Assembly (NCBI GenBank): GCA_947501605.1
Contig: CANMWZ010000018.1
Location: 26,870-90,869, forward strand
Direction of reading: 5' to 3'
DNA length: 64,000 nt
DNA from: Planctomycetota bacterium
GTDB lineage: Bacteria > Planctomycetota > UBA1135 > UBA2386
In this document: positions 44,357-61,579 of the stretch, in pieces
Position numbering within the stretch: the stretch's first letter is position 1
Layout: the number at the start of each line of letters is the position of its first letter
Program-made: the position numbers and the translations under genes
Notes under the pieces: generated by a model
The model's database searches: none
What the model was told of the DNA's origin: nothing
The model's input: only the letters and a program-made list of their open reading frames with translations

Positions 44357-44758
44357 ATGGATCACCCCGCTGTCGTCCGCCTGCTCGAGGCCCATGCGAT
44401 CCGCCCCTCCGCGCAGCGGGTTGCGATCGCCGGCTACGTGCTCGCGACCGCCGAGCATCCCTCCGCCGATCAGGTCTGGCGCCGCGTCAAGCTGGAGTTC
44501 CCAATGGTCTCGCGTGCGACCGCCTACAACACTCTTAAGTTGTTCGTGGAAAAAGGGTTGCTTCGTGAACTCGTGTTGGCTCCAGGCTACGCGGTCTACG
44601 ATCCAAACACTGCACCGCACCACCACTTCCTCGACGAAGATCGCGGCTCGATCCACGATGTCCCGTGGTCGGCCCTGACCGTCGACCTCGTGGGCGACTT
44701 GCCCGACCTCGAGGTGCGCAACGTGAGCGTCGTGCTACGAGGCCGACGCCGCAGCTGA
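44357..44758 (+). CDS. Fur family transcriptional regulator (PerR/Irr-like)
   Basis: QRVAI, EHPSADQV, SRATAYNTL, HHHF; lacks CxxC; upstream of ahpC and dps. Confidence 0.9.
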   Translation: MDHPAVVRLLEAHAIRPSAQRVAIAGYVLATAEHPSADQVWRRVKLEFPMVSRATAYNTLKLFVEKGLLRELVLAPGYAVYDPNTAPHHHFLDEDRGSIHDVPWSALTVDLVGDLPDLEVRNVSVVLRGRRRS

Positions 44759-44791
44759 CCTTGGCCGCCGACCCTCGAACATGCCCCTCTC

Positions 44792-44806
44792 TTGGACAGA
44801 GTCCAA
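44792..44806. promoter_or_regulatory. Second operator copy TTGGAC-AGA-GTCCAA upstream of ahpC
   Basis: Perfect 6-3-6 palindrome with compensatory change relative to 44337. Confidence 0.7.
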
Positions 44807-44833
44807 AACAACACAGAGTGCACAGGAGTCACG

Positions 44834-45373
44834 ATGATCACCGTAGGAGACCGATTTCCCGCCTTCCGCATCACCGCCACCCTGTCTCGCGAGTCGGGCA
44901 AAGAGTTCGCGCAGCTGACGGACCAGAGCTTTCCAGGCAAGTGGCTTGTGCTGTTCAGCTGGCCGCTCGACTTCACCTTCGTCTGCCCGACGGAGATCGC
45001 TGAGTTCGGCCGCAGGAACGCGGACTTCCTAGGCCGCGACGCCCAGCTACTCGGGTTGTCGCTCGACTCGGAGTATGTCCATCTCGCCTGGCGCAACCAG
45101 CACCCGGATCTAGCGACCTTGCCGTTTCCGATGCTCGCCGACGTGAAGCGCGAACTCTGCACCGCCCTGGGAATTCTCCACCGCGATGCAGGCATCCCGT
45201 TGCGTGCGACGTTCGTCGTCGACCCACAAGGCTTGGTCCGCTTCGTCTCGGTCCACGATCTCGATGTCGGTCGCAACGTCGACGAGGTGCTGCGCACCCT
45301 CGACGCGCTGCAGACCGGAGAGATGTGTCCGTGCAACTGGAAGAAGGGCGAGAAGACCCTGGAGATGAAGTGA
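44834..45373 (+). CDS. ahpC: Peroxiredoxin AhpC
   Basis: AGGAG RBS; DFTFVCPTEI, GRNVDEVLR, CPCNW. Confidence 0.92.
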   Translation: MITVGDRFPAFRITATLSRESGKEFAQLTDQSFPGKWLVLFSWPLDFTFVCPTEIAEFGRRNADFLGRDAQLLGLSLDSEYVHLAWRNQHPDLATLPFPMLADVKRELCTALGILHRDAGIPLRATFVVDPQGLVRFVSVHDLDVGRNVDEVLRTLDALQTGEMCPCNWKKGEKTLEMK

Positions 45374-45748
45374 TTGCGGCACTGAGCGCTGCTGGTGGCA
45401 GTGACGTGAGGCCCGAGGTCATGGCCGATGCTCAGGCGGTTGCTGCGCTGATGGCGATGAACAACGCCTGCGACCGCGTTCGCCACATGGTGCAGCAGCC
45501 GTCCTACCAGCCGTTGCCGCCGCGCCTGCAGAAGCTGGCCCTGGCGCAGGCCAACACGACAGTCCCCGAGCTCTTCGGTCTCGCGGTCAGCGTCATCGAT
45601 GGATGTGATCCCTGCGTCGTTGCCCGCCAGCGCCTTGTCATCGAAGCCGGGTCGACCGAGGGCCAGGTGAACGATGTCCAGCCGCATTGCTGCGACGGTC
45701 AATGCCGTTGCGACCGCCGCCGCCATGAGGAGGGACGTCGTCGCGTGA
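45370..45748 (+). pseudogene. ahpD: Degraded alkylhydroperoxidase AhpD
   Basis: AALMAMNN..R.RHMV, ELFGLAVSVIDGCDPC; N-terminal part missing; catalytic His replaced by Arg; +1 frameshift near 45679, after which RIAATVNAVA continues in another frame. Confidence 0.75.
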
Positions 45749-45810
45749 ATGTCATGAGCTGCGGCCCAGGGCCAGCTCTCCGAACCCCTAACTACCCCAG
45801 GAAAACGATC

Positions 45811-46287
45811 ATGTATGCATCTCCGACCCCGCTACCGCTCGAAGCTCGCGCTGCGATCGTGAAGTCGCTCAACGCGGTGTTGATCGACGGTCTCGACCTG
45901 CATTCGCAGATCAAGGTTGCGCACTGGAACATCAAAGGTCCGCACTTCGCGGCGCTGCACCCGTTGTTCGACACGTTTGCCACCGAGTTGTCGGTGCACA
46001 ACGATGCCATCGCCGAGCGCGCCGTCACGCTCGGCGGCGTCGCGGTTGGTACCGTGCGGCAGGTGGCGCAGCAGTCGGGTCTGCCCGAACTGCCGGCCCA
46101 GGCAACGCGCGACTTGGAACTCGTCGAGCTGCTCGCATTGCGCTTCGAGAAGTATCTCGGCGGTGTGCGCATCGGCCGCGATGTTGCCGGCGAGTCGGGC
46201 GACGAAGAAGCGGTCGACCTGTTGACCCAAGTGGTGCAGGACTTCGAGAAGCACGCGTGGTTCCTGCGCGCGACTCTTGGTCGCTGA
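45811..46287 (+). CDS. dps: Dps DNA-protecting ferritin-like protein
   Basis: KVAHWNIKGPHFAALHPLFD, DAIAER, EKHAWFL; own ATG with AGGA RBS. Confidence 0.93.
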   Translation: MYASPTPLPLEARAAIVKSLNAVLIDGLDLHSQIKVAHWNIKGPHFAALHPLFDTFATELSVHNDAIAERAVTLGGVAVGTVRQVAQQSGLPELPAQATRDLELVELLALRFEKYLGGVRIGRDVAGESGDEEAVDLLTQVVQDFEKHAWFLRATLGR

Positions 46288-46484
46288 GTCGCGGGCAGAG
46301 AGGCGACCCCATCGCTGTTCGCGCTGGGGCGGTGCGCCGTACGCGGCAGCCCGAGGGGCGGCAGTCCTTCGAGCTCGGGCGTGACCGGTGGGTGCTGCAA
46401 AGGAAACGTGAGTTTCTCTGCTTCGCCGCACGATCTCGTTCGTAACCTGCCCGCCTGTTTTCCCGACCGAGGTCTAAATACCAC

Positions 46485-47468
46485 ATGTTCGCCCGTCCTA
46501 GCGTTCTGTTTGCTGTTGCTCTTACCTTCGCTCCTGCCGCAATCGTGGCCCAAGAAGGAGGCGCGGCACCGGCAGCCGAGTGGCTGCAGAACTTCGCTGA
46601 CGCCAAGGCCAAGGCCGCGGCGGCTGGCAAAGACCTGCTGGTCGACTTCACCGGGTCCGATTGGTGCGTTTGGTGTCAGCGTCTTGACGCGGAAGTTTTC
46701 GAGAAGGCGGACTTCCAGGCCGAGATCACGAAGAACTTCGTGCTGGTCAAGCTCGACTACCCGCAGAACCAGGAGTTGGTGACCGCGGAGATCAAGGCAC
46801 AAAACGCCGAGCTCCAGGCCAAGTACAAGGTCCAGGGCTTCCCGACGATCTTCCTCATGGATGCCGAGGGCAAGCCCTACGCGCAGACGGGTTATCAGGA
46901 AGGCGGGGACGCGAAGTACCTCGAGCACGTCAGCGGGATGCGCAGCAACAAGGTTGGCCGCGACGAGCATTTCGGCAAGGCCAAGGACGCCAAGGGCATC
47001 GATCGCGCCACGCACCTCGCCGCCGGTCTCGAAGCACTGAAGAACGACGAGATGGTCCTCGCGCACTACCGCGCCGAGATCGACGAGGTCATGAGCCTCG
47101 ACGCCGACGGGAAGGCTGGCCTCAAGGGCAAGTTCGAGGCCAAGGTCGCGAAGGCCGAGCTCGAGGGCAAGTTTCAGGAGCTGGCGCAGGCCGGTGATTG
47201 GGACGGTGTCGACAAGCTGATGGCCGAGATGCTCGAGAAGTTCAAAGGCAACGGCGAACTCGAGCAGATGGCGACGTTCTACCGCGCCGTCGTGCTGATC
47301 GAGTCGAAGCAGGACTTCGACGGCGCGCTCAAGCTGGTCGATGCAGCCTTGGCGTTTGCGCCGGAAAGCGACATGGGCAAGCAGCTGCCGCGTATCCGCA
47401 AGAACATCGAGAAGATCCAGAAGCAGTCGCAGGGCGGCGACGAAGAGAAGAAAGACGGCGGCAAGTGA
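46485..47468 (+). CDS. Exported thioredoxin-fold protein with helical C-terminus
   Basis: Signal peptide; DFTGSDWCVWC, GFPT. Confidence 0.88.
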   Translation: MFARPSVLFAVALTFAPAAIVAQEGGAAPAAEWLQNFADAKAKAAAAGKDLLVDFTGSDWCVWCQRLDAEVFEKADFQAEITKNFVLVKLDYPQNQELVTAEIKAQNAELQAKYKVQGFPTIFLMDAEGKPYAQTGYQEGGDAKYLEHVSGMRSNKVGRDEHFGKAKDAKGIDRATHLAAGLEALKNDEMVLAHYRAEIDEVMSLDADGKAGLKGKFEAKVAKAELEGKFQELAQAGDWDGVDKLMAEMLEKFKGNGELEQMATFYRAVVLIESKQDFDGALKLVDAALAFAPESDMGKQLPRIRKNIEKIQKQSQGGDEEKKDGGK

Positions 47469-48710: not shown

Positions 48711-51383
48711 ATGCGCCCGCTCGCCCTTTCGCTGTCGTTCGTACTGGTAGTGATTGCCTCGACGATCACGCCCGCGCAAGTCCCGAGTCCGACTGCGTTC
48801 CTCGGTCACGAAGTTGGCGCCGACCATCGGCTGTGCAACCACACCGACTTGCTGCGGTACTTCGAGGCAATCGACGCGGCGAGTGATCGTGTCAAGCTCG
48901 TCGACATCGGCACCTCAAGTTACGGCCGTCGCATGACCATGGCGGTGATCACCTCACCGGAGAACCACCAGCGTCTCGAAGAGTTGCGCCAGATCGCGGT
49001 TCGCTTGTGTCGGGCTCGCGATGACGAGCAATCGGCCGAGTCTCTGGTCGAGCAGGGTCGCGCTGTCGTCTGGATCGATGCCGGGCTGCACGCGAATGAG
49101 TCGATCGCCGCTCAGAACATCATCGAACTCGTCTGGCAGATGGCGTCGCGCGAAGACGAAGAGGTCCGTCGCATCCTCGACGAGGTTGTGTTGCTCGCGT
49201 GCCCGGTCAATCCCGACGGCCTCGAACTGGTGGCGAATGCCTACACGGCGACGGGTTCGCAGGACATCCCCATCCTCTACCAGCGCTACATCGGCCACGA
49301 CAACAACCGCGACTACTACATCAGCAACCAGCTGGAGACGCGCAACGTGAGCCGTGTCTTCTTCACCGACTGGTGCCCGCAGATTGTCTACAACCATCAC
49401 CAATCAGCACCGAGCGGCACGATCCTGTTCACGCCGCCGTTTCGCGACCCTTTCAACTACAGCGCTGACCCACTGGTGATGCGCGGCATCGATTGGGTTG
49501 CTGGTTCGATGAATCGCCGGTTTGCCAGTGAGCAAAAGCCTGGGGTCATCTCGCGCGGCGGCGCGCCTTACTCCGGCTGGTGGAATGGCGGCCTGCGTTC
49601 GACCTGCTACTTCCACAACATCATCGGCATCCTCACCGAGGCCTTCGGGCATCCGGACCCGACGCGCATCGTGCAGACGATCGATCGCCGATTGACCTCG
49701 GGGGACTATCCAGATCCCGTGCCGACGCAGATGTGGCACGCGCGCCAGACCATCGAGTACCTGCAGACCGCGAACTTCGGCATCCTTGACCATGCCTCGC
49801 GCTACCGCCGCGAACTGCTGCGCGACATCTATCGAATGGGGCGCAACTCGATCGCGCGAGGTGGGCGCGACCACTGGACCGTCACGCCAAAGCTGATCGC
49901 CATGGCGAAGGCGAAGGAGGCGGCACAGGAGGATGCGAACGTTGTGTTCGCCGATCCAGCCCTGCGCGACCCGCGGGCCTACGTGTTGCGTGCCGATCAG
50001 CGCGACTCCGCTGCCGCGGTGCGCATGGTGCAAGCGCTGCAGCGCTCCGGCATCGAGGTGATGGTCGCCAACGAGCCCTTCGTAGCCGAGGGGCAATCGT
50101 GTCCGCGAGGTTCGTTCGTGATTCACACGGCACAGCCGTTTCGGCCACACGTGATCGACTTGTTCGAGCCACAGGTGCATCCCGACGACTTCAAAGACGG
50201 CAAGCCCGTGCCGCCGTACGACTCCGCGGGTTGGACGCTGTCGATGCAGTTCGGCGTCGACGTGATCCGGTGTCGAGACTCGCTCGATGGACCGTTCCAG
50301 CCGGTGGCTTCCGTGGTCGGCTTCGGCACCGCGCAACTGCCGCCGAGCACGCACGGGTGGCGCATCGATCCCGCGAGCAGCCATGCCGTGATCGTGGTCA
50401 ATCGCCTCCTGGCCGCGGGAGCTCGAGTCGAGCGCGAAGTCGTTCGCGGTGGTGGTTACATCGTGCCGCGGCAGGACGGTGTCGAAGCGAAGCTCGCGGT
50501 AGCTCTCGAAGGTCTTGGTTTCGTGCCGGAGGCGTTGGCGACCGCGCCGTCGCCTGGCATCCAGCAGCGCGCGCCCCGTATCGGTCTCTTCGACGTGTGG
50601 GGTGGCCACATGCCCACTGGCTGGAACGAGTGGCTCTTCTGCGAGTTCGAGTTCCCGATGCAAACCGTGTTCGGCGATCGCATCGCGCGCGGCGACCTGC
50701 GCGCGGATTTCGACGTGTTGATGTTCCACACCGGATTGCCCGGCGGACGCGATCTACAGAAGCCGCCGCGGCCAGTGGATGGCGAGCAGCTCGCCAAGCT
50801 ACAGAAGGCTCTGCCGCCGTACGATGACTGGTCGACGCTGTCATCGCGCGCGACGCGGCTCACCAGCGATTCGACCTGGGCGCCGCTGCGCGCATTCGTC
50901 GAAGGCGGCGGAACGCTGATGGTGTTCGGTGGCGAATGCGAGAAGGTCGTGCGCCAGTTCGAACTGCCGATCGAAGTCGGTACGTGGGTCGAGGATGCCA
51001 GCGCCGAGGGCGGTCGCCGCCGCACCCGCAACGAGGAGTTCTACGTGCCAGGTTCGCTGCTCGCGGTCGAGTTCGAAGCAGCGCATCCATTCGCAGCCGG
51101 GAGTCCGGAGAACGGCGTGGCGATGTTCACGCGATCGAGTGCCGTCCTGCGGCCGACCACGGATGCCGTGCAGGTGATCGCGCGTTACCGCAATACGGAC
51201 ACGTTGGCGTCGGGCTGGGCCGTTGGCCTCGAGCACGTCGCCGGACGGGCTGCGATCGCCGTGGTCCCGCAGGGCAAGGGTCGCGTGGTGTTGTTCGGCG
51301 CCGACGCCACCTACCGAGGACAGCCTCTAGTCACGATCCGCGTGCTCTTCCAAGCGCTGCATGCGGCCGTCGTCCCTGACTGA
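48711..51383 (+). CDS. Secreted M14 zinc carboxypeptidase family protein
   Basis: GLHANE, NPDG, HDNNRD, NHHQ; C-terminal GATase-like domain. Confidence 0.88.
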   Translation: MRPLALSLSFVLVVIASTITPAQVPSPTAFLGHEVGADHRLCNHTDLLRYFEAIDAASDRVKLVDIGTSSYGRRMTMAVITSPENHQRLEELRQIAVRLCRARDDEQSAESLVEQGRAVVWIDAGLHANESIAAQNIIELVWQMASREDEEVRRILDEVVLLACPVNPDGLELVANAYTATGSQDIPILYQRYIGHDNNRDYYISNQLETRNVSRVFFTDWCPQIVYNHHQSAPSGTILFTPPFRDPFNYSADPLVMRGIDWVAGSMNRRFASEQKPGVISRGGAPYSGWWNGGLRSTCYFHNIIGILTEAFGHPDPTRIVQTIDRRLTSGDYPDPVPTQMWHARQTIEYLQTANFGILDHASRYRRELLRDIYRMGRNSIARGGRDHWTVTPKLIAMAKAKEAAQEDANVVFADPALRDPRAYVLRADQRDSAAAVRMVQALQRSGIEVMVANEPFVAEGQSCPRGSFVIHTAQPFRPHVIDLFEPQVHPDDFKDGKPVPPYDSAGWTLSMQFGVDVIRCRDSLDGPFQPVASVVGFGTAQLPPSTHGWRIDPASSHAVIVVNRLLAAGARVEREVVRGGGYIVPRQDGVEAKLAVALEGLGFVPEALATAPSPGIQQRAPRIGLFDVWGGHMPTGWNEWLFCEFEFPMQTVFGDRIARGDLRADFDVLMFHTGLPGGRDLQKPPRPVDGEQLAKLQKALPPYDDWSTLSSRATRLTSDSTWAPLRAFVEGGGTLMVFGGECEKVVRQFELPIEVGTWVEDASAEGGRRRTRNEEFYVPGSLLAVEFEAAHPFAAGSPENGVAMFTRSSAVLRPTTDAVQVIARYRNTDTLASGWAVGLEHVAGRAAIAVVPQGKGRVVLFGADATYRGQPLVTIRVLFQALHAAVVPD

Positions 51384-51629: not shown

Positions 51630-53978
51630 GTGTCTTGGGTCAGCTGGATCACTCCTGCGGTTGTTGTTGCGATCGGCATCGCCGCATTGTTGCGGCGGCG
51701 CTCCGATCTGCGGCAGCAGAGCCATGTACTCGCCGAGCGTGCCAAGGCGAAGGCGCAGGGCAGCCACGAAGCGAGGTTGCTGCACCCAAAGATCGATCTG
51801 GCGAACTGCATCGGTTGCGGCGCCTGCGTGCGTGCGTGTCCGGAAGAAGGCGTGCTCGCGCTTGCCTTCGGCCAAGCCGTTGTCGTGCACGGCGCTCGCT
51901 GCATCGGTCATGGTCGATGCGCCGACGCGTGTCCGACCGGCGCGATCGCGCTGACGCTCGGCGACATCAAGGATCGCAAGGACCTGCCGGCAATCGACCC
52001 TCAGCACGAGGCTGTCACGGTTCCTGGTCTGTTCCTCGCCGGCGAGATCACCGGGTTCTCGCTGGTGCACACGGCGGTGAAGCACGGTGCGCTGGTGGCC
52101 AGCGAAGTGCGGCGACGCGTGGCTGCGCAGGCCACTACACTTGCCCAGGCGGGTGCGGCCCGCAGGTTCGGTCGCGTGGCCGTCGGAGTCGGCGGCGGTG
52201 AAACTGGCGAGGTCGCAGACGATCCGACTCCTGCCCCCAAAGTACTCGATCTCATCGTCGTCGGACTGGGCCCTGCGGGCTTGTCGTGCGCGCTGGCTGC
52301 CAAACAACACGGCCTGCGGTTCTTGTGCATCGAGCAAGCGGACGCCATCGGCGGCACGGTCGCGGCCTACCCGCGCAAGAAGCTGGTGATGACGCAGCCG
52401 ATGGACTTGCCGCTTCATGGCAGGCTGGATCGGCTCGAGTATCAGAAGGAGGAGCTCGTCGAGTTGTGGGGCCAGCTCGCGCACCAGCATCGACTGCCGG
52501 TGAAGACCGGTGTCCAGGTAACCGGCATCACGCGCGACGACGACGGCGTGTTCGCAGTTGCGACGAGTTTCGGTATCGCCCGCGCTCGCCATGTCTGTTT
52601 GGCCGTGGGACGACGCGGATCGCCGCAGAAGCTGCTAGTGCCTGGCGAAGACCTGCCGAAGGTCGCCTACTCATTGCTCGATGCCGAGAGCTATCACAAC
52701 CGCGCGATTCTCGTCGTCGGTGGTGGCGACAGTGCCATCGAAGCGGCACTCGCACTTGCGGAGCAGCCGGGCAACGTCGTCACGCTGAGTTATCGCAAGC
52801 CGGTGTTCACGCGCATCAAGGCGCGCAACCAACAGCGCATCGAGAAGGCGATCGAGGAGCAGCGCATCGAAGTGTTGCTGGACAGCAACGTCGTCGAGAT
52901 CCGACCGGATGCAGTGACCCTGCGATGCAGCGGCGCCACCGGGCAAGACACGGACGTCGAGCGCAGCAACGACGAGGTCTTCATCTTTGCCGGCGGCAAG
53001 CCACCGTATCCACTGCTCGAGGGCGCTGGGGTGTCCTTTGATCCAGCGCTGCGTCCACCCGAGCAAATCGATGTGGATCGCGGCACCGGACTCCTCGTCG
53101 CGCTGGTTGCGACCCTTCTGGGTTGCGTTGGGCTGCTCGTCGTGCGCATCGCGGGCAGCGGCTACTACGACCTTCCGGTGGTCGAGCGCGACCTGTCCGA
53201 GTGGCATGCCGTGCTGCGTCCACAGGGCGCATTCGGCCTGTTCACCGGTCTGGTCGCTGCGACTCTGTTCGTCGTCAACTTGCTGTATCTGGCGCGCCGT
53301 TCGCCGCGATTCTCGCGGTGGCTGCCCGGCAGTCTGCGCGGGTGGATGTCCGTGCACGTTGCGACCGGCTTCTTCGCGCTGCTCTTTGCGTGCGTGCACA
53401 GTGCCTTCCACATTCGCGACGCGGTCGCCGGCCATTCGTTGGTGGTGATGGCCATCGTGGTGACGACCGGCGCCATCGGGCGCTGGTTCTATTCGTTCGT
53501 GCCGAAGGCGCAGAGCGGGCGCCAAGCGGACCTCGAAGACCTCGGCTCGCGTGTTGCGGCGATTGCCGGCGAGTGGGACGAGGTTGGTCGCGGCTTTGGC
53601 AATCGCGTTCGCCAAGACGTCGAGTCGTTGGTCAGCGCCGATCACTTCGGCCGCAACCTGATCGACCGGGTGTTCTCGCTTGCCAACGGCCAACTGCGGC
53701 TTCTTCGCCTCATTCGACGGGTTCGCAAGCAAGGTGTCGCCGAGGGTGTGCCCGATGGCGAGTTGCAGCGCATCCTCGTGCTGGCCCGCCGCGCGCATCG
53801 CATCGCGCTACAGCTCACGCACTACGAAGAGGTTCGCGGCATCTTGTCGTCATGGCGGTGGATGCATCGCTGGCTCGCGTTGTTGCTCGGCATCCTGGTC
53901 GCCGTGCATGTGTTCACCGCCATTCGCTTTGGCGGCGTCGACTTCGGCGTACTGAGCCTGCTTGGAGGTGACAAGTGA
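51630..53978 (+). CDS. Fusion: TM - 2x[4Fe-4S] ferredoxin - permuted TrxB-like FAD/NAD(P)H oxidoreductase - diheme-b membrane domain
   Basis: CIGCGACVRACP, CIGHGRCADACP; PGLFLAGE; VGLGPAG; VGGGDSA..SYRK; five C-terminal TM helices with two H-x13-H pairs. Confidence 0.85.
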   Translation: MSWVSWITPAVVVAIGIAALLRRRSDLRQQSHVLAERAKAKAQGSHEARLLHPKIDLANCIGCGACVRACPEEGVLALAFGQAVVVHGARCIGHGRCADACPTGAIALTLGDIKDRKDLPAIDPQHEAVTVPGLFLAGEITGFSLVHTAVKHGALVASEVRRRVAAQATTLAQAGAARRFGRVAVGVGGGETGEVADDPTPAPKVLDLIVVGLGPAGLSCALAAKQHGLRFLCIEQADAIGGTVAAYPRKKLVMTQPMDLPLHGRLDRLEYQKEELVELWGQLAHQHRLPVKTGVQVTGITRDDDGVFAVATSFGIARARHVCLAVGRRGSPQKLLVPGEDLPKVAYSLLDAESYHNRAILVVGGGDSAIEAALALAEQPGNVVTLSYRKPVFTRIKARNQQRIEKAIEEQRIEVLLDSNVVEIRPDAVTLRCSGATGQDTDVERSNDEVFIFAGGKPPYPLLEGAGVSFDPALRPPEQIDVDRGTGLLVALVATLLGCVGLLVVRIAGSGYYDLPVVERDLSEWHAVLRPQGAFGLFTGLVAATLFVVNLLYLARRSPRFSRWLPGSLRGWMSVHVATGFFALLFACVHSAFHIRDAVAGHSLVVMAIVVTTGAIGRWFYSFVPKAQSGRQADLEDLGSRVAAIAGEWDEVGRGFGNRVRQDVESLVSADHFGRNLIDRVFSLANGQLRLLRLIRRVRKQGVAEGVPDGELQRILVLARRAHRIALQLTHYEEVRGILSSWRWMHRWLALLLGILVAVHVFTAIRFGGVDFGVLSLLGGDK

Positions 53979-56014
53979 ACCTCCGTCGCTGGCTGCTGCC
54001 CGTTACTTCGCTGGTCGCGGTGTTGGCGATCACGGCCTGGGAGTTCGCGAGTTCGCGAACGGGCCCAGGGCCGCTGCATCCTGCGCACCATGAACTCGAC
54101 AGCATGTTCGGTTCGGATTGTTCGAGCTGTCACAAGGCCGGCGCTGGCGTCGATCCTGAGGGCTGCATCCGGTGTCACGAGCCGATTGGGGCGCAGCGCA
54201 CCGCGCGCCACGGATTGCATGGGAGCCTGTCGAAGAAACAGTTCGAGGACTGTGCCCAGTGCCACAGCGAGCACCATGGTGCCACGAGTGCCTTGATCGC
54301 GCCGCAGGCCTTCGCCTACGCCGGTGTTCATGATCCTGCCGCCTACGACCATCGTCACGTCGCCGACTACCACCTCAGCGGCGCGCATGCCGTGCTCGAT
54401 TGCGACCAGTGTCATCCAGCCGCGAACGCACCGATGCCGCCTCACGGTGGTCGCTTCCTCGGTCAGCAACAGGCCTGCGCCGCTTGCCACGAAGACGTTC
54501 ACCGTGGCGTGTTCGGGGTCGATTGCGAAGCGTGCCACGGCCAGGTGGAGAAGTTCCGCTCGGCCCCGGGGTTTCTGCACAGCATCTTCCCGCTGGTCGA
54601 CGCGCACGCTCGCGTGGCCTGTGAGAAGTGCCACGAGCCCGGGACAGTTCGGGCGACCGAGGCGCTGAGCAAGGCGCCACTGCCGGCGCGAACGTGTGCG
54701 GAGTGTCACGTGGATCCGCACCACATGCGGGCGAACGTGCCGGCGAAAGCGATCCTGCTCGGTGACACCGCCGATTGTGCGCGTTGTCATGCATCGACGA
54801 AGTGGAAGGACGCGCGCGTGACGCCGGCGAAACATGCCGAGTTCGGCTTCCCGCTGCGTGGTGGTCATGCGAAGGCCGAATGCAACAAGTGCCACGGCGA
54901 TGCGAGCCACCCGAGCAAGCACGGCGACTCGCTGCCGCAGCTCGAGGCGTGTGCTCGCTGTCACGAACATCCGCATCGCGCCGCGTTCGTGCAGGCCGCG
55001 GTGGCGGTGCAAGGACCAGCCGATGGTTGTGCGAAGTGCCATGTCGACGAGCAGGCCGACTTCCACCTCGCCTCGACGACGGTGGCACAGCACGCAGCCA
55101 CGGCGTTCCCGCTGGTGGAGCCGCATGCCAAAGTCGAGTGCAGCAAGTGTCACGGCGAGCCAGAGAAGGGGCTGCGGAAGAGCTATGCCGAGCGTTTCCT
55201 GAGCCGCGTTCCGACGGACTGCCGCGCGTGCCATGAGGACGTTCATGCCGGGCAGTTCGACCACGACGCGCGCTACGCGCAGTGCACGGCGTGTCATCAG
55301 CCGCTGGCGTTCGCGCCAAACGCGTTCGGGACGACGATGCACCAGAAGACCGCGTTCCCACTGACGGGAGCTCACGATGCCGTGGCCTGTTCGCGGTGCC
55401 ACGACAAAGTGAAGGACGAGGTCCGGGCCTTCCACGACACGAGCCACCAATGCGCTGACTGCCACGAGGACGTGCACCAAGGCGAGTTCGACAAGTCGGG
55501 CAAGCCGGCGACGGTTGGCGGGCGCACCGGCTGTGCTCGATGCCACGACACCTCGGCGTTCTCCCCGGTGAAGACATCGACCTTTGACCACGGGATGTGG
55601 ACCGGCTACCGCCTCGAAGGCGCTCATGCTCGCAACGACTGCGGGAAGTGCCATCTGCCGAATGCCAGTGCCGCAGCAACCGTGGTCACGGCGAAAGCCA
55701 CGCAGCGTCGGCTCGGCAAAGCAGCCGGCAAGAACTGCGTTGACTGCCACCGCGACCAGCACCAAGGCCAGTTCGGTCAAGGCAAGACGATCGACTGCGC
55801 GCGGTGCCATTCGACCGAGGACTTCCACAAACCACGGTTCGACCACTCTCGCGACAGTCGGTTCGCCCTCGACGCCCAGCACGCTCCGTTGGCATGTGAA
55901 GCGTGCCACAAGACCTACGAGTCACCCGCTGGCCCGGTGGTTCGCTACAAGCCGCTCGGTGTCGAGTGTGGCGACTGCCACAAGCTCGCCAACAAGCGCC
56001 AGGGGGGACGATGA
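53975..56014 (+). CDS. Periplasmic multiheme cytochrome c, 23 CxxCH
   Basis: N-terminal signal/TM; 23 CxxCH counted by hand, arranged as triheme repeats; GTGA overlap with upstream gene. Confidence 0.92.
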   Translation: MNLRRWLLPVTSLVAVLAITAWEFASSRTGPGPLHPAHHELDSMFGSDCSSCHKAGAGVDPEGCIRCHEPIGAQRTARHGLHGSLSKKQFEDCAQCHSEHHGATSALIAPQAFAYAGVHDPAAYDHRHVADYHLSGAHAVLDCDQCHPAANAPMPPHGGRFLGQQQACAACHEDVHRGVFGVDCEACHGQVEKFRSAPGFLHSIFPLVDAHARVACEKCHEPGTVRATEALSKAPLPARTCAECHVDPHHMRANVPAKAILLGDTADCARCHASTKWKDARVTPAKHAEFGFPLRGGHAKAECNKCHGDASHPSKHGDSLPQLEACARCHEHPHRAAFVQAAVAVQGPADGCAKCHVDEQADFHLASTTVAQHAATAFPLVEPHAKVECSKCHGEPEKGLRKSYAERFLSRVPTDCRACHEDVHAGQFDHDARYAQCTACHQPLAFAPNAFGTTMHQKTAFPLTGAHDAVACSRCHDKVKDEVRAFHDTSHQCADCHEDVHQGEFDKSGKPATVGGRTGCARCHDTSAFSPVKTSTFDHGMWTGYRLEGAHARNDCGKCHLPNASAAATVVTAKATQRRLGKAAGKNCVDCHRDQHQGQFGQGKTIDCARCHSTEDFHKPRFDHSRDSRFALDAQHAPLACEACHKTYESPAGPVVRYKPLGVECGDCHKLANKRQGGR

Positions 56015-57690
56015 AGCCGGCACGTGCAGAACTGATGGCTGCGGTCGCACTGCTGGCGCCGGTCATGATGGCGCAGCAGTCGCCGCAGACCGTTGTCGTG
56101 CAAGTGCACGTGACGAGCGTGTCGGGGCGAGACGTGTACCTCGACCTCGGTCGCACTGCTGGGCTTGCGCCGGGCCAGACGGTTCGGCTCTATCCATCCG
56201 GGACTGCCGAGGTGCAGGCGCTGATTCGCACCGTGAGCGCTACTTCGTGTCGCGCCGAACTGGTGCCGGGCGCCATTGCACCAACCGTCGGTTCTCGCGG
56301 CGAAGTCGAGGTGCCGAAGCCAAAACCGTCGGCGTCGCCGCAGGGCAGTGGTTCGAGTTCGCAACCTTCGACCTCGCGCCCGGTGCCCGCGCACCCGCCG
56401 TGGCAACGCCAAGTCGACCCGCTGCGGCCAGACCAGCCCCTCTTGGTTCCTACCTTCGGCCAGAAGCCAGATGACCGGCCAGCGACATTGGACGGCCGGG
56501 TCTTCTTGTCGAGTCAGTACTCGCGCGACGACGGTGGCGATCGAGCCAATTCGTATTGGCTCACGCGCATGGGGTTCGCTGGCGAAGCGAACAATGCGAT
56601 GGGCTACGGCGAGCGCACGCGCTTTGCCGGTGAGGTCAACGACCGCCGTGCGTCGGTTCCTGGAGAAGTCGACGACGGCGATTCGCGATTGCGCATCGAC
56701 CAACTGTCGACTTCCTTCGGCACCGAACGCTGGTCGCCGTACGGAGCCGAGGTCGGCCGGTTTCTGTCGCAGCACTTGCCTGAGATCGGATTGGTCGATG
56801 GCGCCGAAGGCGTGATGCGCTACGGCAATGGTGTGCGCATCGGTGGTGGCCTCGGCGCCTACCCGGTGCCGTACCCGGATCGGCAGTCAGGGGACGACGT
56901 GGGGATCCACGCGTTCATCGACTACACCAGCGACGAGCGACGGACGTTTGCAGCGGCCGCTGGTGTGCAAAAGACGTGGCATCTAGGTGCGGCGGATCGC
57001 GACCTGCTGCTGTTCCGAGTCGAGAGTCATCCTGCCGAGGGCGTCACGTTGTTCGGCAGCGCCAAAGTCGACTGGTACACCGGCGGCGACGATCGCAAGA
57101 GCGGAGGATTTCAGGTCACGGAGTTCTTCGGGCAGGCGCGCTGGGATGGTGTCGACAAGGGCGCTGGTCTCTCGCTGTCGCACTTCGCCTGGCCCGACTT
57201 GCTGCGCGGGGAGTACAAGAACCTCCCGGACGAGCTCGTCCGCGATGGCAAAGTTGATCGCTTGTCGCCCTCGCTTTGGTTCCGCGTCCATCAAGACGTG
57301 CGGCTCAGCGGGCGCTTCGACATCTGGCAAGACCAGGATGCGAGCGGCACAGCGTTCGAACTCGGGGTCGACTGGAACAACATTGCCGCCAGTGGCACTA
57401 GCCTCACGGCGCAGGTGTTTCGAACCGACGGCGGCGCCCAATCCGGCCCGGGCCTTCGCCTGCTCGCGCGGCGGCAGATAGGCGAGGTCTTCGTCAACGC
57501 CGGCTATCGCTGGTACGGTTACGACGTCGAAGGGCTGCTTGCGGGCCCGGAGTCTTACACCCGTCAGTCGATCGATGTTGGCGCCTCGTGGATGGTGGGC
57601 GAGTGTGATCTAAATCTTCAGCTCGAACATTGGTTCGGCGACCAGGAGAACGCGTATGCAATCGCTCTCTATGCACAGTGGCGATTCTGA
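56011..57690 (+). CDS. Outer-membrane beta-barrel (porin-like) protein
   Basis: ATGA overlap; signal peptide; small N-domain and Pro/Ser linker; amphipathic beta strands; C-terminal ALYAQWRF beta-signal. Confidence 0.75.
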   Translation: MKPARAELMAAVALLAPVMMAQQSPQTVVVQVHVTSVSGRDVYLDLGRTAGLAPGQTVRLYPSGTAEVQALIRTVSATSCRAELVPGAIAPTVGSRGEVEVPKPKPSASPQGSGSSSQPSTSRPVPAHPPWQRQVDPLRPDQPLLVPTFGQKPDDRPATLDGRVFLSSQYSRDDGGDRANSYWLTRMGFAGEANNAMGYGERTRFAGEVNDRRASVPGEVDDGDSRLRIDQLSTSFGTERWSPYGAEVGRFLSQHLPEIGLVDGAEGVMRYGNGVRIGGGLGAYPVPYPDRQSGDDVGIHAFIDYTSDERRTFAAAAGVQKTWHLGAADRDLLLFRVESHPAEGVTLFGSAKVDWYTGGDDRKSGGFQVTEFFGQARWDGVDKGAGLSLSHFAWPDLLRGEYKNLPDELVRDGKVDRLSPSLWFRVHQDVRLSGRFDIWQDQDASGTAFELGVDWNNIAASGTSLTAQVFRTDGGAQSGPGLRLLARRQIGEVFVNAGYRWYGYDVEGLLAGPESYTRQSIDVGASWMVGECDLNLQLEHWFGDQENAYAIALYAQWRF

Positions 57691-58969
57691 CTCGGGGCAG
57701 CCGAGAGCGAAGTGGCGGCGCTGGACCAAGGTCCTGGCCGTCGCGACGTTCGTGTTGTGGGTCGCTTGCGACAGCCTTGTACCCGTGCAAGGCTGGGATG
57801 ATTCGCTTGGACCGGTGATCCCGCACGACACCTTCCCGGCGAATTGCTCGCTGTGCCACACTGGCGGCAACTGGCAGACGATGCGACAGGACTTCGCGTT
57901 CGATCATGCGAAGGAAACCGGTGTGCCACTGGAAGGGGCGCACAAGGGTGCTGCGTGCCTACTGTGCCACAACGACCGCGGTCCGGTCGCGCAGTTCGCG
58001 GCCCAGGGTTGCGCCGGTTGTCACTCCGATCCGCATCGCGGGCAGCTCGGTCGCAACTGCACCGACTGCCATGATCAGCGGACGTGGCGGCCGAGTGAAG
58101 TGATCGCCAAGCACGATCGCACGCGGTTGCCGTTGGTCGGTGCGCATGCGTCGACGGCGTGCTTTCGTTGTCATCCAGGTGCACAAGTTGGCAACTTCTC
58201 CGGTGCGAGTCCGGACTGCGACCGCTGCCATGCGGGTGAGTTCTCGCGGTCGTCGTACGACCATGTCGCCGCCGGCTTCACTTCGGACTGTCAACGCTGC
58301 CACCGGCCAGTCGGCTGGATCCCGGCGCAGTTCTCGCACCCGCAGTCGTTCCCGTTGACGTTCGGCCATGGCAACCGCGCCTGCACCGAGTGCCACCTTG
58401 CGGGCGTCTACACCGGCCTCAGCACGACCTGCTCGTCGTGCCACACCGACGATTACATCGCGACCAGGAATCCGCCCCACGCGGCGAACAACTTCTCGAC
58501 CAACTGTGCCTCGTGCCACAACACGCGCGGTTGGGGCGGCGGCAACTTCCAGCACACACCGACCTTCCCCCTGACGAACGGTCACGCCGGCCGCGCCTGC
58601 ACGGCCTGCCACACGGGGGGCGTGTTCAGCGGCCTCAGCACCACATGCTCGTCCTGCCACCTGGATACCTACCAAGCGACGCGCAACCCAAACCACGTCA
58701 CCTACAACTTTCCGACCAGCTGCGAACAGTGTCACACCACGCGCGCGTGGGGCGATGGCACGTTCACCCATGCGTTCCCGATCACGACTGGTGCGCACCG
58801 AAACATGGCGTGCGTCAACTGCCACACGACGAGCATCGGCACGCAGTTCGAGTGCATCCAGTGCCACACCCACCGCCAGTCGGCGATGGCGAGCGTACAC
58901 AATGGCGTCGGCGGCTACCAGTGGCTGAGCAGTCGCTGCTACGCCTGCCACCCGAACGGGCGCGGCTGA
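57671..58969 (+). CDS. Multiheme cytochrome c lipoprotein, 16 CxxCH
   Basis: RAKWRRWTKVLAVATFVLWVA-C lipobox-like signal; 16 CxxCH counted by hand; internal tandem repeats. Confidence 0.9.
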   Translation: MHSGDSDSGQPRAKWRRWTKVLAVATFVLWVACDSLVPVQGWDDSLGPVIPHDTFPANCSLCHTGGNWQTMRQDFAFDHAKETGVPLEGAHKGAACLLCHNDRGPVAQFAAQGCAGCHSDPHRGQLGRNCTDCHDQRTWRPSEVIAKHDRTRLPLVGAHASTACFRCHPGAQVGNFSGASPDCDRCHAGEFSRSSYDHVAAGFTSDCQRCHRPVGWIPAQFSHPQSFPLTFGHGNRACTECHLAGVYTGLSTTCSSCHTDDYIATRNPPHAANNFSTNCASCHNTRGWGGGNFQHTPTFPLTNGHAGRACTACHTGGVFSGLSTTCSSCHLDTYQATRNPNHVTYNFPTSCEQCHTTRAWGDGTFTHAFPITTGAHRNMACVNCHTTSIGTQFECIQCHTHRQSAMASVHNGVGGYQWLSSRCYACHPNGRG

Positions 58970-58976
58970 GTCTGCG

Positions 58977-59681
58977 TCAGCGTTCGCAGCGACCGAGGCG
59001 CACGATCGCGCCAGGTCGCAGCACGAACGCGTCGACGTGTCCCGACCGCCGGTCGCCGGCTGCGGTCACGGCGATGGCGTGAAGGTGGAAGGCGGTGCCG
59101 TGGTGCGTCAGCGATCCCGCCGCGTCCGGCGCGTAGAAGCCGACGAGGCGCACCGTCGTGCCGGCAGCGGCCGACCAGAGATGCGGCTGCGTCGCCGGTG
59201 TGGTTGCGCCATGCGGGCAGGCGCCGCGCGCCACGTGCACGTTCAGTTGTTCGACGACGCCGGTCACGTCGACCGTGGCCAGTGGCGCAAAGCGGGCGGC
59301 GAGCCGCGCGAGGCTCGATTCGTCGAGTCGTCCGGTCTCGGTCGCCGCCTCGCTGCTGTTCGGCGTGGCGATCGACAGCAGCGTGGCGTGGTAAGTACCG
59401 ATCGCAGTCACGTTCGTGACGACGTGTTCTGGCGCCGTGGCGATCTGCACTTCGCCGTCGACGATCGTGACTTCTCCCAGCAGACCTTCGAGTGCCCCGA
59501 CGCCGATCGTGGCGGGGGCGAGCGTCAGATCGGCGAGGCGAACGCGGGGCTCGGTATGGCCGTCGCGCATCACTTCGCGCATGCCGCCGAACTGCTGGAG
59601 CCGAGGTCCCGGTGTGACCGTACACGCCACAAGGGCGAGCGCAGCCGCAAGAGCGCACGCCCTGCGCTCGTCGCGGATCAC
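58977..59681 (-). CDS. Alpha-acetolactate decarboxylase-fold lipoprotein
   Basis: ALVAC lipobox; GVGALEGLLGEVTIVDG, VGFY, FHLH...SGHVD; GTG overlaps the htpG stop. Confidence 0.65.
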   Translation of the reverse strand: MIRDERRACALAAALALVACTVTPGPRLQQFGGMREVMRDGHTEPRVRLADLTLAPATIGVGALEGLLGEVTIVDGEVQIATAPEHVVTNVTAIGTYHATLLSIATPNSSEAATETGRLDESSLARLAARFAPLATVDVTGVVEQLNVHVARGACPHGATTPATQPHLWSAAAGTTVRLVGFYAPDAAGSLTHHGTAFHLHAIAVTAAGDRRSGHVDAFVLRPGAIVRLGRCER

Positions 59682-61579
59682 GCGCCGGCCATGAGTTCGG
59701 CGACCTTCTTGGCAAATCCAGCGGGGTCGCTTGGCAGCACGCCTTCGGCGAGCAGGGCTTGGTCGTGCAGCAATCCCGTCCACTGCACGAAGCGAGTCTC
59801 ATCGCTGTCGGCGAGCGACTTCATCTTCAGCAGGACCGGGTGCGTCGGATTGACTTCGAGGATGCGCTTTTGCTCCGGCATCTCGTGGCCGGCATCGCGG
59901 AGGATGCGTTCCATGTGCGCGCTCATGCCGTGCTCGTCGCTGACGAGGCATGCCGGCGAGTCGGTCAGGCGGTGCGTCACGCGGACCTCCTTGACCTTGT
60001 CGTCGAGGGTCTTGTGCATGCGCGACAGAACGGCACCGAGGTCCTTCTGCTGCTGCTCCTTGTCCTTCTTCTCGTCTTCGGACTCAGGCAGGTCGAGCGC
60101 GCCCTTGGCGGCCGACACCAGCGGCGAGCCGTCGAACTCGCGCAGGACATCGACGACCCACTCGTCGATGGGATCGACCAAGAACAGGACCTCGCGGCCG
60201 TGCTTCTTGAGTGCCTCGATGTGCGGGCTGCTCTCGGCGGCCGACAGGCTGTCGGCGGTGACGTAATAGATGCCCTTCTGGCCCTCGGGCATGCGCGCCT
60301 TGTAGTCGGCAAACCCGGTGAGATCGGTTCCGCGTGTGGTGCGATAGCGCAGGAGACCAGCTAGCTGCTCGCGCGAGCCGGTGTCGTGGTAGACGCCCTC
60401 CTTCAGTACGCGGCCGAACTCGCCCCAGAACTGCAGGTAGCGGTTGCGCTTCACCTTCTCGCCGTCGGCTTCGACCTCGGTCTCACCTTCCTTGGCGAGT
60501 TCTTCGAGCAGAGCCAGGGTCTTCTGCACGACCTGCTTCTTGATGAAGCGCGTGGTCGCATCCTTCTGCAACACTTCGCGCGAGACATTGAGCGGCAGGT
60601 CTTCGCTATCGACGACGCCGCGCATGAAGCGCAGCCATTCGGGCAGGATCTCCTGCGCGTCATCCATGATGAACACGCGCTTCACGAACAGTCGCACGCC
60701 GCCCTTCTTCTTGTCGACCAAGTCCTGCGGCGCCTTCTCGGGGACGAACAGCAGGCCCGTCAGCTCGTGCGTGCCCTCGACTTTGAAGTGCGTCCACGCC
60801 AACGGGTCATTCCAGTCATGGCTCGTGTGCTTGTAGAACTCGACGTACTGCTCCTCGGTGACCTCGCTCTTCGACCGAGTCCAGATCGCGCTGGCGGCAT
60901 TGATCGTCTGCCATTCGAGCTTCTTGTCGTCCTCTTCGCCGCGCTCCATCTGCAGTCGGATCGGCCACCGCACATAGTCGCTGTACTTGCGAACGACCGT
61001 CTGAATCGACCAATCCTCGAGGTACTCCTTGGCGTCGTCCTTGAGGTGCAACACGATGTCCGTGCCACGGCTGGCACGAGCGCCCGGTTTGATTTCGTAG
61101 TCGCCCTTGGCCTCGCTTTGCCAGATCCACGTGTCGTCACTGCCCGCCTTGCGTGAGGTAACCGCGACCGTGTCGGCGACGAGGAAGGCGCTGTAGAAGC
61201 CGACGCCGAACTGGCCGATCATCGCGACGTCTTTCTTTTGCTCGGACGACAGCGATTGCATCAGCTTCTTGGTGCCCGAGCGCGCGATCGTGCCGAGGTG
61301 CGAGATCAGTTCGTCCTTCGACATGCCGACACCGTTGTCGCGGATCGTCAGCGTGTTGTGCTCCTTGTCGATCACCAGCTCGATGCGCAACTCGTGGTCG
61401 CTGCCGAGCAGGGATGAGTCCTGCAGTGCCTTGAGGTTGAGGTGGTCGATCGCGTCGCTGGCATTGCTGATCAACTCGCGCAGGAAGACCTCGCGATGGC
61501 TGTAGAGCGAGTTGACGACGATCGACAACACCTCGTTGACTTCAGCCTGGAATACGTGCTTCTCGACGGTCGTGCTCAT
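59678..61579 (-). CDS. htpG: Hsp90 chaperone HtpG
   Basis: YSHREVFLRELISNASDA, DNGVGM, IGQFGVGFYS, DSEDLPLNVSRE. Confidence 0.97.
   Translation of the reverse strand: MSTTVEKHVFQAEVNEVLSIVVNSLYSHREVFLRELISNASDAIDHLNLKALQDSSLLGSDHELRIELVIDKEHNTLTIRDNGVGMSKDELISHLGTIARSGTKKLMQSLSSEQKKDVAMIGQFGVGFYSAFLVADTVAVTSRKAGSDDTWIWQSEAKGDYEIKPGARASRGTDIVLHLKDDAKEYLEDWSIQTVVRKYSDYVRWPIRLQMERGEEDDKKLEWQTINAASAIWTRSKSEVTEEQYVEFYKHTSHDWNDPLAWTHFKVEGTHELTGLLFVPEKAPQDLVDKKKGGVRLFVKRVFIMDDAQEILPEWLRFMRGVVDSEDLPLNVSREVLQKDATTRFIKKQVVQKTLALLEELAKEGETEVEADGEKVKRNRYLQFWGEFGRVLKEGVYHDTGSREQLAGLLRYRTTRGTDLTGFADYKARMPEGQKGIYYVTADSLSAAESSPHIEALKKHGREVLFLVDPIDEWVVDVLREFDGSPLVSAAKGALDLPESEDEKKDKEQQQKDLGAVLSRMHKTLDDKVKEVRVTHRLTDSPACLVSDEHGMSAHMERILRDAGHEMPEQKRILEVNPTHPVLLKMKSLADSDETRFVQWTGLLHDQALLAEGVLPSDPAGFAKKVAELMAGA

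Follow-up and report, generated by a model that had tools for sequence, protein, structure and literature searches.

Positions 51630 to 58969 of a 64,000-nt stretch of planctomycete DNA (contig CANMWZ010000018.1 of assembly GCA_947501605.1; this whole stretch is called the window below, and all positions refer to it) carry four overlapping genes on the plus strand, g1 to g4, which encode a flavin and iron-sulfur (Fe-S) enzyme fused to a membrane domain, a 23-heme c-type cytochrome, a predicted outer-membrane beta-barrel and a 16-heme c-type cytochrome. This four-gene operon is real, conserved and widespread. With somewhat better than even confidence it is read here as a NOX-like, quinone-independent wire from NADPH to the cell surface, which would probably export reductant and not conserve energy.

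Organization and conservation of the operon

The first gene, g1 (51630-53978), encodes 782 aa; g2 (53975-56014, 679 aa) overlaps it by GTGA; g3 (56011-57690, 559 aa), which most likely starts with the ATG at 56011, overlaps g2 by ATGA; and g4 (57656-58969) starts either at 57656, with an overlap of 35 nt, or at 57671, with an overlap of 20 nt. All open reading frames (ORFs) and, with the later start of g4, all overlaps described in an earlier note on this DNA were recovered. A wrong-frame artefact is ruled out by homologues at 40-75% identity. The four genes have the GC content of their flanks and are single-copy in the host genome (4.65 Mb, 91% complete), and the nearest relatives of g1 (71-74% identity) are recorded as Planctomycetota.

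Concerning conservation, 40 loci were taken from roughly 70 strong matches to the g3 porin, spread across the score range, and all 40 also hold, inside some 9 kb, a flavoprotein, an inner-membrane protein (IMP) related to the membrane domain of g1, and multiheme cytochromes, with flavoprotein and IMP fused in 23 and split in 17. This constant presence of the flavoprotein and its fusion to the IMP in one chain are counted in favour of the NADPH-fed reading. Since gene order is altered in five of these loci (L113-L115, L118, L125), the linkage is not merely inherited gene order. When loci were collected by g1, all four genes stood in the order of the window at 34 of 79, the remainder being mostly contig-cut or split forms, and at one of them (L037) no porin match was found in the 2 kb remaining after g2; the four-gene synteny that the earlier note suggested looking for is strong. 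The split forms, in which flavoprotein (~435 aa) and IMP (~290 aa) are proteins of their own, occur in Calditrichota, KSB1, Zixibacteria, Latescibacterota and others. In a FastTree phylogeny the 69 fused forms cluster together (support 0.8) with two short ORFs inside, one of them contig-cut; the root is arbitrary, such that no order of fusion and splitting events is claimed.

Strong porin matches (E below 1e-30) were found in 49 of 401 Planctomycetota genomes; a larger tally of 166 was rejected, as listed matches weaker than about 1e-20 are mostly short and confined to the N-terminal region. In a second phylum, 35 of 114 genomes have porin matches at E up to 1e-15, and the family comprises 1,158 clusters at 50% identity. 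The whole cluster, together with ccsA, is situated on plasmid NC_018749 of the cultured Emticicia oligotrophica DSM 17448, the sole match in plasmid searches with g4. Among the 120 listed of 5147 g4 homologues, no proteobacterial names were found.

Members of the IMP family also occur in Sphingobium, Bradyrhizobium, Alteromonas and Pontibacter (HMM E 6e-22 to 4e-15), with other flavo-Fe-S partners and a cytochrome of 7-10 hemes. A plasmid of Bradyrhizobium BTAi1, which carries three IMP homologues, has a porin-less module of a 2Fe-2S protein, an IMP and a 7-heme cytochrome (L084:514-9160) among gnd, zwf and tal, i.e., pentose-phosphate genes that produce NADPH; this is a single case. In Alteromonas macleodii, a porin-less IMP module (plasmid, L083:4995-8478) is located directly upstream of [NiFe] hydrogenase genes, and on a Pseudoalteromonas plasmid (L081:9785-12139) a related flavoprotein with C-terminal Fe-S motifs lies among glycosyltransferase genes, with no IMP on that record.

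The flavoenzyme and membrane domain of g1

g1 begins with a membrane anchor helix (aa 1-43, 51630..51758), seen as a hydropathy peak at aa 3-21 and as a helix over aa 3-43 in the AlphaFold structure prediction (pLDDT 80.6 and pTM 0.62 for g1), and also present in the stand-alone flavoprotein of Emticicia. The following ferredoxin-like domain (aa 53-106, 51786..51947) matches Pfam Fer4 families, and its cluster types are predicted; all eight ligands (C60/C63/C66/C101 and C91/H94/C97/C70) are unchanged in every one of 44 fused homologues. Its motif II reads C91-x2-H94-x2-C97-x3-C101, and the His at the second position is kept in all 44 fused forms and in 114 of 120 homologues. Because His94 stands in for a Cys, the second cluster is not a standard four-Cys one; of the two ferredoxin clusters called earlier, both motifs are present, but the conventional ligation of the second has to be given up. 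In motif I, the second Cys is replaced by Thr, Ser or Ala in 27 of 51 listed split forms.

Next comes a TrxR/YpdA-like FAD/NAD(P)H domain (aa ~108-472, 51951..53045) that is circularly permuted and has no active-site CxxC. Besides the Fer4 domains and a weak match to Ferric_reduct, Pfam finds Pyr_redox_3 in g1 at E 5e-40, and the NAD(P)H motifs are invariant across 44 of 44 homologues, in agreement with the FAD and NAD(P)H sites of the earlier note. The nearest solved relatives are annotated as Bdr/YpdA, TrxR and ferredoxin-NADP reductases, the best being Bdr/YpdA 7a7b (E 4e-36), matched over its residues 4-268 only. The permutation is recognized because aa 108-166 match residues 282-327 of an unpermuted Sphingobium homologue, i.e., the segment after its core, as well as the C-terminus of GltD, and the permuted order is kept in 115 of 120 homologues, the other five being not scorable. 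A TrxR-type CxxC between the FAD and NADPH motifs was found in none of 116 homologues, which suits electron transfer to Fe-S centres and not disulfide chemistry. R389 and R395, situated after the Rossmann motif and invariant in all 44 fused homologues, stand where TrxR has its 2'-phosphate-binding arginines; together with the missing CxxC, this makes NADP(H) the likely substrate. TrxR itself was rejected as an assignment on the lack of CxxC and a score of 69 bits (cut-off 343), and YpdA on a score of 146 bits (cut-off 339.9).

The C-terminal part of g1 (aa 482-782, 53073..53978; stand-alone homologues have ~290 aa) is a five-helix membrane domain of the PCC3/PCC4-type IMP kind, predicted to bind two b hemes, with helices in the model at 486-508, 534-557, 569-590, 599-650 and 709-767 and a cytoplasmic helical insertion between the fourth and the fifth. 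Both H-x13-H pairs noticed earlier were found: W572/H576/H590 and W742/H746/H760, in the third and fifth helix, form two W-x3-H-x13-H motifs whose residues, among them the predicted heme-b ligands, do not vary across all 44 fused homologues and which are kept in 57 of 57 membrane domains when split forms are included. In the fourth helix, G614-x2-G617 is invariant and preceded by T (23) or A (21) among the 44 fused forms, and the serine of an SGXXG motif is present in the Emticicia and Sphingobium IMPs. If the flavin lies inside, H576/H746 would face the cytoplasm and H590/H760 the periplasm, a layout that would be that of a trans-membrane di-heme wire. Concerning affiliation, 51 of the 57 IMP members match Ferric_reduct (PF01794) at E up to 0.1 and 17 weakly match Ni_hydr_CYTB; an Atlas search with the IMP gave leads under 0.9 only.

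The cytochromes and the barrel

The motif counts of the earlier note, 23 CxxCH in g2 and 16 in g4 (39 c-heme motifs), were confirmed. Chance was rejected as their source, since 2000 shuffles of the same proteins gave means of 0.29 (g2) and 0.19 (g4) and a maximum of 3. In g2 (29.5 aa per heme, 40 non-motif His), an N-terminal part of ~280 aa precedes triheme repeats. This part is homologous to the 7-heme cytochromes that accompany porin-less IMP modules, which suggests that it docks on the IMP. The N-terminal helix of g2 shows no clear cleavage site in planctomycetes and looks cleavable in split relatives (signal peptides were judged by hydropathy and eye throughout), and g2 is likely to be anchored in the inner membrane and to span the periplasm. 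Complete g2 homologues have 17, 20, 23 or 26 hemes in 63 of 65 cases, one of the exceptions being an unrelated neighbour.

g3 is predicted to form an outer-membrane beta-barrel of 22 strands, preceded by a small beta domain at the N-terminus. The AlphaFold model (pLDDT 91, pTM 0.83) places the 22 strands over aa 159-558, a separate count of amphipathic strands also arrives at 22, and a C-terminal Phe is found in 129 of 150 homologues. The top Foldseek matches are usher pores and porins, i.e., outer-membrane barrels, in line with the barrel proposed earlier; as their TM scores reach 0.42 at most, g3 has no close solved relative, and no family for it was found in Pfam or NCBIfam. A complex prediction of g3 with g4 (score 0.01, mark 0.32) gave no answer either way.

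g4 (27.3 aa per heme) is a triheme-repeat cytochrome and a predicted lipoprotein, putatively exposed at the surface. The earlier note had called it a lipoprotein; a lipobox Cys is present, but the lipobox is non-canonical (W-V-A-C, then Asp). Among 40 planctomycete g4 homologues, 25 have a strict lipobox and the other 15, by eye, a Cys after a hydrophobic stretch. Across g4 homologues, heme number varies from 7 to at least 67.

Very long outer cytochromes were observed at loci L047 (at least 67 CxxCH), L070 and L076 (43 each), L080 (40) and L094 (37); L092 has two outer cytochromes and L025 two tandem copies of the operon. In another subtype (L062, L099, L100, L106-L110, L112, L120, L124, L126, L127, L129), a short outer cytochrome of 7 or 10 hemes is followed by a protein of ~930-1050 aa with 11 CxxCH and weak cytochrome Pfam matches, possibly a terminal enzyme of its own.

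Proposed electron path and alternative explanations

In the path proposed here, NADPH would reduce the FAD of g1, whose binding motifs are observed. The flavin would hand single electrons via two atypical Fe-S clusters to an inner heme b on H576/H746 and then to an outer one on H590/H760, both hemes being predicted from their invariant ligands. The outer heme b would reduce the N-terminal module of g2, the repeats of g2 would bridge the periplasm, a cytochrome held in the g3 barrel would carry electrons over the outer membrane, and g4 may pass them to acceptors outside, with Fe(III), humic quinones or O2 as candidate sinks. Outward flow would be aided by the membrane potential but would spend it, leaving protons inside, which points to reductant export or electron dumping and not to a coupling site. 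Apart from the linkage data, the NADPH-fed reading draws on the grouping of the fused forms in the tree, on the pairing of related IMPs with other flavo-Fe-S partners, on the BTAi1 module among gnd, zwf and tal, on the solved relatives, invariant arginines and missing CxxC of the flavin domain, on the complete cluster with ccsA in Emticicia and on the host's cytochrome c assembly genes, two heme-copper oxidases (two COX1) and PntB transhydrogenase; by this gene content the host appears to respire oxygen. The model and fold of the g3 barrel are counted for the wire reaching the surface. A bolder joint claim is advanced tentatively, as possible at less than even confidence: that in oxygen-respiring bacteria of several phyla, from fresh water and the sea, extracellular electron transfer of a non-respiratory kind that needs no quinones is driven by an NADPH:cytochrome c oxidoreductase in a single chain, and that this enzyme is a NOX analogue in which a TrxR-fold flavoenzyme, circularly permuted, is combined with a ferredoxin that has a His ligand.

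Several observations weigh against the NADPH-to-surface wire. Confidence in the modelled ferredoxin domain is low (pLDDT 43-70), the Ferric_reduct score of g1 (22.9 bits) lies below the Pfam cut-off of 28, and the IMP profile found no significant relative among solved structures (best E 0.17). The Asp at position +2 of the g4 lipobox is found in the window and three close relatives and in none of the 25 strict lipobox homologues; Asp directly after the Cys is the inner-membrane retention signal of enterobacteria. In split relatives outside the planctomycetes, g4 has the look of an ordinary secreted protein, which leaves its route to the surface unexplained. Finally, the genomes are kin, such that the locus counts are not independent.

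Three other explanations have to be weighed. A quinone link, which seems unlikely for this operon, was proposed for such clusters by He et al. (PMC5566968), who compare the IMP with a quinone-active cytochrome b, a comparison that also tells against the wire. The IMP would then pass electrons to or from the quinone pool, the flavin/Fe-S part would either feed in from the side as an NAD(P)H:quinone reductase or form a branch, and the conduit would be a terminal branch of respiration. The weak Ni_hydr_CYTB matches fit this, whereas the stronger Pfam likeness of the IMP is to the membrane domain of ferric reductases, and a pyridine-nucleotide enzyme, superfluous for a purely quinone-fed conduit, nevertheless stands at every porin locus sampled. 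It is quite unlikely that electrons stay within the envelope, with g1 feeding g2 and g4 as a heme capacitor or a reductase of periplasmic substrates and the barrel admitting substrate or aiding assembly. Porin-less three-gene modules with the same IMP family do exist (also in Table S6 of PMC5566968), and the +2 Asp of the window's g4 would suit such a location. Yet g4 homologues range so widely in heme number while g2 stays at 17-26, as expected if the width of the periplasm limits g2 but not g4, and the top structural matches of the wide barrel are, at low TM, ushers that let proteins pass.

The opposite direction, in which Fe(II), reduced humics or electrodes outside would feed electrons in and reduce NAD(P)+, had been left open in the earlier note and is very improbable on bioenergetic grounds. 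PCC3 was found in iron oxidisers (PMC5566968), and multiheme wires can work in both directions (PMC10734462). However, inward flow would run against the membrane potential, reduction of NADP+ would by textbook values require a donor potential of around -0.45 V or lower, and with Fe(II)-citrate the PCC3 genes of strain ES-1 are lower than with thiosulfate (PMC8788666).

Sequence records and genomic surroundings

One DNA contig covers 47566-61213 with one letter different, but the window itself may derive from the run behind this contig. DNA matches come from lake-water and freshwater-sediment metagenomes, nine of them flagged as possible sources of the window. In RNA runs X11 and X12, coverage is flat over all 30 bins, with genes equal to gaps, as with DNA carry-over, and in RNA run X17 a contig lies at 58340-58768, the 3' part of g4, with little or nothing across g1-g3. 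A sigma-70-like promoter was looked for at the locus and none was found, and the three terminator-like sites are not above shuffled expectation (5.3).

The operon is flanked by genes for an M14 peptidase (48711-51383) and an acetolactate-decarboxylase-like protein (58977-59783), with no sign that these belong to it. At 44357-47468, 4-7 kb upstream, follow genes for a Fur/PerR-like regulator, a peroxiredoxin, a Dps-like and a thioredoxin-like protein, names which we take from motifs recognized in the translations. One RNA run gave a 1.4-kb contig over 46472-47913, and in one DNA run 40 bases are missing between 47525 and 47566, where an alcohol-dehydrogenase-like ORF starts.

Elsewhere in the same genome, a second, unrelated multiheme cluster (G000:C21:38000-56500, L086) contains paired-CXXCH cytochromes with 13, 11, 5 and 4 hemes, two NHL proteins, a protein of 659 aa that matches no Pfam family, a gene for cytochrome c assembly, a multi-domain cytochrome with 8 CxxCH and a di-heme peroxidase; it presumably resembles conduits of the DFE/Uet type. 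An ORF with 18 CxxCH is located at G000:C1:354936-356597.

Significance

To our knowledge, all well-studied Gram-negative conduits (MtrCAB, Geobacter Pcc) take electrons from quinols. If the proposed path is true, an NADPH-wired conduit would be a low-potential output at the cell surface, independent of the respiratory chain, could account for the reduction of metals, humics or oxygen by heterotrophs not considered electroactive, and would offer a compact four-gene part for bioelectrochemistry. Should the bolder claim hold as well, about one in eight of the sampled Planctomycetota genomes would be electroactive and the quinone model of PCC3-type conduits would need revision. The cultured carrier Emticicia oligotrophica DSM 17448 puts the conduit within reach of experiment.

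Comparison with known systems

The predicted arrangement of a periplasmic multiheme cytochrome (MHC), a barrel and an outer lipoprotein MHC is shared with MtrCAB and Geobacter Pcc, which are quinol-fed through separate proteins. Homology with MtrCAB was rejected: the DmsE/MtrA model scores 55.5 bits (cut-off 192.2) and the OmcA/MtrC model 20.6 (cut-off 209.3), so far below the cut-offs that the cytochromes are, as the earlier note held, not of MtrA/MtrC type, and g3 has no NCBIfam match. That note had confined its comparison to these two systems and overlooked the closest published one, PCC3/PCC4 (PMC5566968).

[quoted passage not shown] The operon shares with it a plan of four components (IMP, periplasmic MHC, second large MHC, porin), an IMP of ~300 aa and five helices with two WX3HX13H motifs (third and fifth helix) and GxxG on the fourth, and cytochromes rich in repeats, with fewer than 30 aa to each heme. 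Despite this likeness there are clear differences. The IMP of the window is fused to a flavin/Fe-S enzyme that goes unmentioned in the available PCC3 descriptions, although He et al. refer to 'another redox protein' next to related IMPs (PMC5566968). The order is IMP, MHC, porin, MHC, whereas that of ES-1, kept in most split relatives, is IMP-MHC-MHC-porin; the second MHC is a predicted lipoprotein; heme numbers follow a series of 17/20/23/26 against 21/24/27; and the hosts are Planctomycetota, Calditrichota/KSB1/Zixibacteria and Bacteroidota. As the likeness rests on architecture and IMP motifs and not on sequence homology with the type proteins, the cluster is called PCC3-type and not a proven member; an Atlas structural neighbour (687 aa, TM 0.63), commonest in Pseudomonadota, is a lead only toward such homology.

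The PCC4 and porin-less clusters (He et al. 2017, section 16 and Table S6) combine, as here, an IMP with two HX13H, a multiheme cytochrome and, at 412-805 aa, a redox protein that the available text leaves unnamed, but mostly have no porin or outer cytochrome, and they have 7-10 hemes. Plasmid modules of PCC4-like size and layout are homologous to the membrane domain of g1 and the N-terminus of g2, although the redox protein in such porin-less plasmid modules is often of another flavoprotein type than g1. Judged by protein size, a neighbourhood of Ignavibacterium album (532 aa/20 hemes, 421/16 and 542/0; PMC11475568) matches as well, and unnamed novel PCC types are mentioned for Bacteroidetes and Verrucomicrobia (PMC6344600). 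In the literature searched, which held few subscription journals and included the available parts of bioRxiv 2025.02.27.639646, PMC7399161, PMC9386147 and PMC13608581, no paper was found in which such a conduit is described as fed by a pyridine-nucleotide flavoprotein.

The flavin domain resembles Bdr/YpdA and the TrxR-like ferredoxin-NADP reductases, its nearest solved relatives, in the absence of CxxC, and differs in being circularly permuted, membrane-anchored and fused to Fe-S domains. With NOX/FRE, the operon has in common the predicted course of electrons, outward across the membrane, from NAD(P)H via FAD to a pair of b hemes held by H-x13-H helices, and the weak PF01794 likeness. The C-terminal FNR dehydrogenase of NOX/FRE is, however, not in g1, whose dehydrogenase is N-terminal to the membrane part, of Pyr_redox_3/YpdA (TrxR/YpdA-like) type and equipped with Fe-S clusters, and the predicted output is to c-type cytochromes. 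What is new is accordingly not the conduit itself, for which PCC3 provides the plan, but the cytoplasmic flavoenzyme input that travels with the cluster, a similar flavoprotein perhaps being present already in PCC4 as drawn in Supplementary Figure 4 of PMC5566968.

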